In this document: positions 4,112-51,588 of the stretch, piece by piece | How positions within the stretch are numbered: the stretch's first letter is position 1 | Layout: the number at the start of each line of letters is the position of its first letter | Assembly: GCA_951406725.2 (NCBI GenBank) | Contig: OX597818.1 | Coordinates: 83,390,001-83,454,000, forward strand | Direction: 5' to 3' | Length of the DNA stretch: 64,000 nucleotides | DNA from: Octopus vulgaris | Lineage: Eukaryota | Made by a program: the position numbers and the translations under genes | Notes under the pieces: model-generated | The model's input: the letters and a program-made list of their open reading frames with translations, nothing else | Databases searched by the model: none | What the model was told of the DNA's origin: nothing

Positions 4112-4195
4112 GATATATATATATATATATGAATTAACAGAATGAGATAAAAAATCCAAGGCTGTGAAAGTTTTCAGAACATTTATACAGAGAAG

Positions 4196-4244
4196 GTCTT
4201 ACAGCTGTTTCTGGGATATTTTTAGATATCACTTCATCAGAGAC
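4196..4244 (-). ncRNA. Type I hammerhead ribozyme motif
   Basis: Minus strand GTCT-CTGATGA-AGTGATAT-CTAAAA-ATATCCCA-GAAAC-AGCT-GTA-AGAC; stem I GTCT/AGAC; base of stem II imperfect. Confidence 0.75.
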
Positions 4245-4298
4245 GGTGCGAGAAAATATTTCTCTATAATATCTATTACTTAAACATTTTCTCGCAGC

Positions 4299-4346
4299 GT
4301 CTCTGATGAAGGTGTATATAAAATATCCCGGAAACAGCTGTAAGTC
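4299..4346 (+). ncRNA. Type I hammerhead ribozyme motif, mirror copy, slightly decayed
   Basis: GTCT-CTGATGA-AGGTGTATATAAAATATCCCG-GAAAC-AGCT-GTA-AGTC. Confidence 0.7.
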
Positions 4347-4804
4347 CTTCTCTGTATAAATGTTCTGCAAACTTTCACAGCCTTAGATTTTTATCTCATT
4401 CTGTTAATTCTTATATATATGCATGCTAATATACGACCTACACTGGACTCCTCATTCGTATCATCATCGAACCTGGAGCTTAACTATAGTCTCTCCATAG
4501 CACTTTGTAGAGAGAGGTGCTACAGATATCGCTAACAAGCAATATGAATAACCATTGAACTATCACGTAGAAACGTTAGTCTGTGGACATAGTATGACCG
4601 TTGTTCAAAGATCGGAGTGTGCGTGTAGGTGATTTCATGCTTATCAATGGGATATCATTACTTTCGATGCTATCACGAATATCTTAGCGTACACCAGTCT
4701 TGTCAATCCACATGGGTCTCATTTATTCCTTCTAGAATGTTACCAGTTGTTAGGGGTTGAAATAACTTCAAGGTTTTGAAGAGAAATGCCAGTTTTATTT
4801 TAAA

Positions 4805-11066: not shown

Positions 11067-11454
11067 GGTGGAAGCACAATGGCCCAGTGGTTAGGGCAGC
11101 GGACTCGCGGTCGTAGGATCGTGGTTTCGATTCCCAGATCGGGCGTTGTGAGTGTTTATTGAGCGAAAACACCTAATGCTCCATGAGGCTCCGGCAGGGG
11201 ATGGTGGTGATCCCCGCTGTACTCTTTCACCACAACTTTCTCTCACTCTTACTTCCTGTTTCTGTTGTACCAGTATTTCAAGGGGCCGGCCTTGTCACTC
11301 TCTGTGTCACGCTGAATATCCCCGAGAACTACGTTAAGGGTACACGTGTTTGTGGAGTGCTCAGCCACTTACACGTTAATTTCACGAGCAGGCTGTTCCG
11401 TTGGTCGGATCAACCGGAACCCTCGTCGTCGGAACCGACGGAGTGCTTCCATCC
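11067..11454 (+). mobile_element. Full-length tRNA-derived SINE, group A, tail type 1
   Basis: A/B-box head; 10-bp target-site duplication AGTGTGCTAG at 11057-11066 and 11455-11464. Confidence 0.92.
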
Positions 11455-12215: not shown

Positions 12216-12521
12216 TTTTATGCGCCCTTATCAAGCCTAACCAGGCTAATGGGCCCGGTTTCCCGGTTTGTATGGCGTATGTTTTCTCCCCAGCTGGACG
12301 GGATGCCAGTCCATCGCAGCGTTACCCAAGAAACAGGAAGAAAGAGTGAGAGAAATTTGGGGCGAAAGAGTACAACAGGGGTCGCCGCCACCCCTTGCCG
12401 GAGCCTCGTGGAGCTTTAGATGTTTTCGCTCAATAAACACACACAACGCCCGGTCTGGGAATCAAAACCGCGATACTCCGACCTCGACCCCGCTGCCCTA
12501 ACTACTGGGCCATTGCACCTC
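12216..12521 (-). mobile_element. Full-length tRNA-derived SINE, group A, tail type 2
   Basis: Same head and body as 11067 but a different tail; 15-bp TSD ATGT(A/G)CATGTAGTAT at 12201-12215 and 12522-12536. Confidence 0.9.
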
Positions 12522-50612: not shown

Positions 50613-51334
50613 AATAATATTAATGTTGATGTTAATAATGACATTAAGAACGAAAATTAACTAAGATGCTCCAGTAGGAATATAGGTTAATTAGAATCTC
50701 ATCTTGTCTATGAATAAAAGTGACCAACTTTACAATATTGTAAGAAATCTGAGTTTTACGAGTAATCTCTTTATTTGTTTGTCTGGCTTTTTCTCTCTTT
50801 TTCTATCTATATAAGCACACACACGAACAAAAGGGCAAGAGAGCGAAAGAAAGAAGCAAACAAAAATAGAGAGAGGCAGGGAAAGATAGATAGATTCAGA
50901 AGGAGAGGGAGGGGAGAGAGCGTATGAGTCATTGACTAGGGTGTGGTTTCGATTCTCAGACCAGGCAGTGAGTTGTGTTAATGAACAAAACACTACATTT
51001 CAAGTTTCTCTCTTATCGCTCCGACGTCTCACACGTGGCATAGAATTCACCAGTATGTACAAGCAATTTTGTGAATGTATTCAAATAATTGTACAGCACA
51101 AACATTTGATCCCTATAGACAAATCATCTCTACAGGTTATTCCACAACAAATTGCGAAAAAATGTGCTACTGTGAGTGTCATGCAATAAAAAGATGCCAG
51201 GCAGTAGTTTCCACACATCTGGTGTCTCCGCGCAATCTTCAGACACGGCCCACAAGGTTTCGCATGCTCTCATTGCATGAAAGTAATATTCGCACATAAA
51301 AACACACACTGTGTTTATATATATATATATATAT

Positions 51335-51532
51335 GTAGGTCCCGGGTTAAGTCGGGGTTAACCACAGTAAATAAGGTACTCAATACATAGCAGAGTAAAT
51401 TAATTTATTTTATAGAAGGAGCTTCTACAGGGCTAGAACTGTTTCATTCAAAAGAAATCATCAGGAGCTTCCTGATGATTTCTTTTGAATGAAACAGTTC
51501 TAGTCCTGTAGAAGCTCCTTCTATAAAATAAA
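51335..51532. mobile_element. Young ~200-bp hairpin element in (TA)n with 63-bp inverted arms
   Basis: 51404-51466 and 51470-51532 are reverse complements with one mismatch and a 3-nt spacer; (TA)n on both sides. Confidence 0.88.
51464..51518 (+). ncRNA. Compact type I hammerhead ribozyme motif (mirror copy on minus strand, ~51418-51471)
   Basis: GGAGCTTC-CTGATGA-TTTC-TTTT-GAAT-GAAACAG-TTCTAGTC-CTGTA-GAAGCTCC; 8-bp stem I, stem III ACAG/CTGT, GUA triplet; U-U at the base of stem II. Confidence 0.8.
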
Positions 51533-51552
51533 ATATATATATATATATATAT

Positions 51553-51588
<36 letters not shown>

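Follow-up and report, generated by a model that had tools for sequence, protein, structure and literature searches.

Short head-to-head PLE insertions in Octopus vulgaris may record priming on both target strands and joining of two cDNAs at the capped end of the element RNA

The window analysed here is a stretch of 64,000 nucleotides from Octopus vulgaris (assembly GCA_951406725.2, contig OX597818.1, positions 83,390,001 to 83,454,000 of the forward strand), and at 51335-51532 it holds a short PLE insertion between two (TA)n tracts (Table 1). The centre of the insertion is a palindrome with 63-bp arms at 51404-51466 and 51470-51532, which differ at a single position (51432/51504) and enclose the spacer GCT. 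An earlier note on this DNA had described arms of this length with one mismatch and a 3-nt spacer, and both the coordinates and the spacer are confirmed. The predicted hairpin fold has an energy of -104.4 kcal/mol (z -22.7), and none of 200 shuffled sequences was equally stable. Positions in the RNA of this PLE family are counted from +1 at window position 51466, so that the right arm reads G followed by +1 to +67 and the left arm +5 to +136, with GA as the overlap between them. The junction G at 51465 is probably a copied RNA cap, and 51335 and 51532 would be the first and second reverse-transcription start sites of this insertion. In full-length elements the tail continues into the 5' UTR and the ORF.

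Table 1. Features of the PLE insertion in the window (RNA positions relative to +1 = 51466)
Feature	Position	Strand	Basis or remark
Left (TA)n target tract	51316..51334	.	Sequence; TA tract also around 30/30 top copies
69-nt PLE tail, RNA +68..+136	51335..51403	-	3,962 tail-motif matches
Tail-bearing arm, RNA +5..+67, hammerhead without the first four bases of stem I	51404..51466	-	
Junction, 2-nt overlap GA	51465..51466	+	G is not the native upstream base (native T or C)
Tail-less arm, RNA +1..+67	51466..51532	+	Reaches the putative RNA 5' end
Type I hammerhead	51466..51516	+	Core and stems read in the sequence
Stem I	51466-51471/51511-51516	+	Native 5' strand AGCTTC, 6 bp
Hammerhead core	51472-51478 and 51491-51494	+	CUGAUGA...GAAA
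Stem II		+	3 bp, U.U closing pair
Stem III	51494-51509	+	4 bp ACAG/CUGU; CUAG within 8-nt loop
Predicted cleavage site	after 51510 (= after +45)	+	
Right (TA)n target tract	51533..51585	.	Sequence

The plus strand carries the hammerhead with the ACAG/CTGT stem III and CTAG loop that had been described, with its predicted cut after 51510. The inversion centre had been placed within stem I; it does lie near the 5' edge of the ribozyme, but long copies read (T/C)AGCTTC-CTGA, and hence native stem I comprises 6 bp starting at +1 and the GG of the window belongs to the junction. The type I features are present (core CUGANGA/GAAA, A15.1-U16.1, H17 and three stems). The G10.1-C11.1 pair that closes stem II, given as conserved in the available text of PMC4209133, is absent, and all 369 arms compared have U.U instead. 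No hammerhead family appeared among the 150 of 213 Rfam matches listed. Variants across the 369 arms are frequent at N7, loop 2 and loop 3, which would be expected of a constrained fold, and no compensatory changes were seen in the hammerhead stems of these arms. The hairpin is not the double hammerhead it had been taken for, given that only the plus-strand copy is whole, while the minus-strand copy lacks +1 to +4 and folds no better than shuffled sequences (z 0.37). The ribozyme fold alone has an energy of -7.3 kcal/mol, and within the hairpin's own transcript it is predicted to be unable to outcompete the 63-bp duplex.

Two other inverted arrangements were seen in the window. The first, at 4132-4412, is an older hairpin (87% arm identity) that lies in a TA tract and belongs to another PLE-type family; each arm contains a hammerhead core with stem III ACAGCTGT, and the centre lies about 30-40 nt upstream of the core, outside stem I. 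The second consists of inverted copies, 87% alike, of an unrelated interspersed repeat at 11077-11263 and 12329-12515.

At least 40 sequences in the genome match the 198-bp unit at 97-100% identity (of 701 candidates, 40 were scored), all 30 copies examined lie in (TA)n tracts, and the exact centre of the window copy occurs at 124 genomic places. Compared with the identical copies L004-L009, the window copy shows 2 differences in 198 positions (51349 and 51432). The hairpin had been described as very young, and such youth is ordinary in a family whose 40 best matches are 97-100% identical. The tail motif has 3,962 genomic matches and the motif at the +1 end has 5,745. A junction sample of 90 loci, drawn from the 100 tail matches listed first for contig C1, consists mostly of two head-to-head arms with a junction specific to each locus. 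The same plan, with arms of up to about 5 kb and one tail each, is seen in 20 stretches picked for opposed pLTR matches; the exceptions are L220/L221, an overlapping and nested pair, and L233, which has a tail-motif match at both ends. Short head-to-head PLE insertions number in the thousands, the window hairpin among them. The locus alone is ordinary, one draw from thousands instead of the rare mechanistic snapshot proposed earlier, and the mechanism is carried by the population. An assembly artefact, which the earlier note had wanted excluded, is unlikely at the family level, given the 124 places with the same centre and the contigs of other public runs that span centres of the family type (records 6, 21 and 31). 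At the window insertion itself, contigs of other public runs end at the flanking TA tracts. Some loci carry filler between the arms, which in L195 is 171 nt of foreign DNA and in L169, L265, L271 and L294 consists of short repeats of the element's own junction.

The parent element is best seen in L325, where a pLTR, the hammerhead, the tail and an ATG at +184 are followed by an intact ORF of 713 codons. The ORF of the family starts at an ATG at +183/184, and 13 of 30 ORF loci have the hammerhead and tail upstream at L325-like spacing. Because the tail precedes the ORF in L325, it is internal to the RNA, as it is for the PLE protein PAc in the available text of PMC11167929. The 713-aa protein has YRDD (RT) and C-terminal GIY-YIG-type YIGMT...RW motifs, and BLASTP matches the parent ORF to a PLE of the same genome that is Pfam-positive for RVT_1 and GIY-YIG (22% over 460 aa, E 5e-7). 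Pfam found no RT or GIY-YIG domain in a 533-aa piece of the ORF, and a PDB sequence search returned no match for the parent protein. Motifs of the Hydra clade were recognized by eye: DKT, a CxCX5C linker, and CxxC and CxH near the C-terminus, the latter two standing by conserved E and N, with RWR at residues 38-40 where the Hydra clade has RWK. Placed by motifs alone, the parent would be a Hydra-type PLE. The hallmarks of EN+ PLEs are present, with a single ORF combining RT with a GIY-YIG endonuclease at the C-terminus, and a pLTR that has a hammerhead, along with a partial tandem, an inverted 5' copy and an optional tail. The earlier assignment of the hairpin to a PLE end is borne out. The near-full-length copies L299, L300 and L319 share one truncated frame of 501 aa, i.e. 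a frameshifted source element that went on spreading.

Three other assignments were rejected. An abundant 781-aa PLE family of the same genome is not the parent, as it differs from the window family in pLTR and hammerhead. A non-LTR retrozyme requires direct hammerhead tandems, and the copies here are dispersed inverted pairs; the exception is L047/L048, a direct tandem of two identical short-form copies with a TA tract between them, which could be a duplication or an assembly repeat. A MITE requires a fixed unit with terminal inverted repeats, and here the centre varies, the tail is one-sided and the parent has an RT. The 781-aa family (L199-L217) is a second, very young PLE family in its own right. 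Many of its frames are intact and another ORF lies upstream, its optional tail measures 40 nt, its hammerhead is a U3-A8 variant, and it has TATAAAT 28 nt before a CA dinucleotide located about 30 nt upstream of the ribozyme. The loci of this family that were examined include no short copies.

The arm ends of the window family pile up at the 5' edge of the hammerhead. Among 153 ends at the 90 sampled loci, 39 fall exactly at +1 (23 from the 90 tail arms, 16 from the 63 partner arms, with AGCT-palindrome centres scored as both arms at +1), 89 lie within +1 to +10 and only 3 within -1 to -10. Mapping of the centres across copies had been proposed as a check, and their placement relative to the hammerhead is non-random. 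When one arm ends at +1 its partner never lies upstream of +1 (0/27, P about 3e-4; 2 further arms had no partner found), and in three subfamilies a TATA-like box (TATAAAT or CATAAAT) begins 29 nt before +1. Lone arms joined to TA have G at base -1 at 44 of 76 loci, compared with C at 13, A at 10 and T at 9 (tallied by hand from the first 100 of 123 rows), and a single G stands between the TA tract and +1 at 37 loci, versus a single C at 8. An intron with a YAG-like acceptor at stem I, modelled on the acceptor-bearing intron of D. virilis Penelope (PMC4209133, available text), was rejected as the source of this G, since the bases before it vary among junctions. A hand tally of the first 100 of 5,745 rows for the +1 motif, with a pattern that leaves out one overlap class, gave 62 native sequences, 20 AGCT palindromes (11 loci), 16 rows with G and 2 with another base, i.e. 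G at -1 in 16 of the 18 junctions that are neither native nor palindromic.

Reverse transcriptases can copy the m7G cap, which yields a C. However, the R2 enzyme adds non-templated G and T, with no cap stated in the available text of PMC13000458, and the -1 G hence marks the end of the template more surely than it marks a cap. Whether the G is a cap copy or an untemplated addition, +1 is the template end. Judged from sequence, it is most likely a capped Pol II transcription start, and the hairpin centre is likely the capped start of the element RNA. The centres probably cluster at the hammerhead edge because this edge is the 5' end of the RNA. The earlier proposal that an RNA or cDNA end next to the ribozyme matters gains support here. 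The stem I boundary coincides with the likely transcription start (TATA at -29, G at -1).

The distribution of the tail constrains how the two arms arose. At 79 loci picked by centre alone (1 of 80 was without the centre), 33 have the tail on the +5 arm and 44 on the capped arm, 2 have it on neither arm and none has it on both; it occurs on either side in all three loop-2 subfamilies. Among 60 short two-arm loci, the arm with the longer 5' reach is the tail-less one in 19 and the tail-bearing one in 19, and the two are about equal in 22. In L223, a tail arm of 253 nt meets a tail-less arm of 5.1 kb. In many loci each arm contains sequence that is missing in the other, and simple fold-back of one primed cDNA cannot make them. 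Nor can simple fold-back of a target-primed cDNA make the window form, because its tail-less arm reaches the 5' end and the other arm has 69 extra nt. The idea that the ribozyme stem primed fold-back synthesis is not supported. The tail-less arm ends at +65 to +68 in 49 of 63 cases, and such sharp ends resemble a second start site.

We propose that two cDNAs were primed on both target strands within (TA)n and joined at the probable capped 5' end of the RNA, a reading to which we assign a probability of about 0.6. The TATA promoter of the pLTR would drive a capped RNA that begins with stem I's first base, and the protein, predicted to be dimeric, would cut both strands of the TA tract. One cDNA would begin at +136, the tail end, and the other at about +67, on the same RNA or on sibling RNAs of one source. 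This source may be the mRNA, through its 5' end, or an RNA made from the pLTR promoter at the 3' end of long copies. A cDNA reaching the cap would gain a C and be joined to the 3' end of the other cDNA via an overlap of 1-4 nt, GA in the window copy and the AGCT palindrome in other copies. In the available text of PMC11167929, the purified PLE protein PAc, a predicted dimer, cuts and extends both strands, its two start sites bound the tail, and uncut RNA is used. With a template that would be mostly uncut RNA, the ribozyme would be a passenger in the joining step.

The two arms of a locus agree closely in their markers, with discordance of 0/132 at N7 (38 expected at random), 6/148 at loop 2 (87), 1/153 at loop 3 (7) and 1/119 at +61 (59), in a set of 162 loci of which 103 were chosen for one centre type. 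Copying of one arm from the other would predict such concordance equally well. In the window family there is no sign that the two arms of a locus came from different parents. Private variants are one-armed in 58 of 59 cases and inherited variants two-armed, and because of the former gene conversion between the arms is not the cause. A fold-back of another kind could also give concordant arms: a cDNA reaching the capped end would fold back on itself (GA/TC stem, AGC loop) and copy through the tail, and the two-tailed intermediate would lose either tail near +67 by endonuclease during integration. This course would also account for short-with-short pairing, the 50:50 tail side and the 19:19 reach, and a cDNA with a cap-derived C could, from its sequence, form the exact minus-strand centre of the window locus. 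Rare two-tailed copies (L294 and 3 of 59 very short hairpin loci) fit it, and a tail produced by endonuclease resolution is a suggestion found in the available text of PMC8557442. We nevertheless consider it rather unlikely, given that about half of all events would require the primed end to come free and be joined again, that both tail ends are reverse-transcription start sites in vitro (PMC11167929, available text), and that two-armed private variants, at 1 of 59, are so few.

Single-G deletions and one chimera also fit separate synthesis of the arms better than fold-back. The deletions recur at +46/+49 (51511 and 51514), both within the 3' strand of stem I; about 6% of short arms have one, and every subfamily is affected. 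A single arm carries the deletion at all 10 main-centre loci, in 7 of them the capped arm, and likewise at all 15 unselected loci; L243, outside the filtered deletion set, seems to carry one in both arms. They affect 22 of 341 short arms versus 1 of 73 long arms (p=0.10). They may be post-insertion quasi-palindrome errors, and we infer that a quasi-palindrome with +31 to +37 is the simpler cause; circular-RNA ligation scars are not supported, the deletions sitting in short arms. The chimera (L198:1227-4400) runs from a tailed arm of the window family through a 20-nt snap-back into a 5'-truncated copy of the 781-aa family and a tail-less end, with a 2-nt overlap at the join between the two PLE families and one tail in total. 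It is a single case and could represent two adjacent events. Short snap-backs were also found at 6-7 of the 59 very short hairpin loci.

The clustering of centres at the stem I boundary would also be expected if stem I, or its cut end, primed fold-back and set the inversion centre. Among the very short hairpins (59 loci, 62 rows, tallied by hand), 13 are centred on the AGCT just 3' of the cut (+48 to +51), compared with 4 on the control palindrome CTAG (p=0.049), and in 2 of the 59 both arms stop exactly at +46. Together with the snap-backs and 20 short-form copies joined through stem I, these make up a small cut-site class. TA-joined arms ending at the cut site number about 7, which is not clearly higher than the 4 of a TA-overlap control, and the genomic trace of ends at the predicted cut (+46) is a weak, minor class. 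The tail is on the short arm in 17 of the 20 short-form copies; this lead/trail bias (17:3), absent in the main form (33:44), is expected from one RNA. The short form also joins through the longest overlap that is available, 7 nt, which could yield these copies without cleavage. Priming by the ribozyme appears very unlikely to us, given that native 6-bp stem I begins at the putative start site, that the -1 G of lone arms is in neither arm's template, that the cut-site classes comprise tens of loci against the thousands reaching +1, and that the hairpin at 4132-4412 is centred well upstream of its own ribozyme.

For palindromes at inverted PLE junctions, the published reading is self-priming by an antisense transcript, which would make the head-to-head palindrome (PMC3846280, available text). 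The wall of ends at +1, the -1 G and the TATA box 29 nt upstream all indicate a sense, capped template, and for the present family we hold this reading to be more doubtful still. Lowest of all we place the possibility that the 198-bp hairpin is a master non-autonomous element, MITE- or SINE-like and copied as a unit. Its 124 copies with a common centre, many of them identical, might suggest so, but same-centre copies amount to about 3% of the 3,962 tail matches, the centre varies from locus to locus, the same centre occurs with either tail side in every subfamily, and variants are two-armed when inherited and one-armed when private. The master-element reading is largely refuted.

Two-ended priming has a relative in LINE-1 twin priming, in which both target strands prime and the inversion junction shows microhomology. 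The LINE-1 segments are non-overlapping parts of the RNA, whereas the arms of the window family copy the same RNA stretch. Inverted PLE ends with tails are known, and the reading of their centre as the cap end would be the addition made here. In the available text of PMC8557442 and PMC3846280, EN+ PLE insertions share with the window family head-to-head 5'-truncated copies with a tail at one end, a pLTR hammerhead, the (TA)n target and partial tandems before the ORF. The tails reported there measure 30-40 bp, compared with 69 nt in a whole insertion of about 200 bp here, and these papers invoke antisense self-priming or endonuclease resolution, whereas here the ends gather at a single base and carry a non-native G. 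The Hydra clade (PMC8557442, available text) has in common with the parent the C-terminal GIY-YIG-type domain, DKT, CxCX5C, CxxC, CxH, (TA)n and a canonical hammerhead; it differs in RWK for RWR, and the placement here is by motifs. Poseidon PAc of Anolis, studied in vitro (PMC11167929), shares two internal starts bounding the tail, an AT-rich target and an uncut RNA template, but it belongs to another clade and its ORF starts inside the hammerhead, compared with an ATG at +183/184 here; the available text links two-strand priming neither to inverted ends nor to an RNA cap. Animal non-LTR retrozymes (10.64898/2026.07.22.740005, available text) are likewise short, non-coding and PLE-derived with a type I hammerhead, but they are direct tandems, whereas in the window family every insertion builds its inverted pair anew. 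The available part of PMC4209133 describes dual hammerheads that lie on opposite strands at distances of 100-700 bp, and the D. virilis Penelope promoter is internal and TATA-less (PMC2377424, available text), unlike the TATA box of the window family. The available text of PMC13282606 mentions neither hairpin nor ribozyme, and in the literature outside Repbase and subscription journals we found no paper linking PLE inversion centres to an RNA cap or to two-ended priming.

How inverted, one-tailed PLE ends are made is named as a task in the available text of PMC8557442, and that of PMC11167929 leaves the steps after first-strand synthesis unvalidated. The octopus family offers thousands of natural junctions, a template of about 140 nt and an intact ORF, which makes fold-back and two-ended priming directly testable against each other in vitro. 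The wall of arm ends with its extra G suggests that PLE transcription starts may be mapped from DNA alone. More tentatively, and at somewhat less than even odds, the family can be viewed as a fossil record of late PLE integration, in which one dimeric enzyme used two start sites of a single capped RNA on both strands of a TA break, the cDNAs were joined at the cap end and the hammerhead extended from the first transcribed base. If this is true, a single reading with a dimeric enzyme would explain the inverted end, the one-sided tail and the random tail side together, and cleavage by a hammerhead that starts with the first transcribed base would take the cap off.
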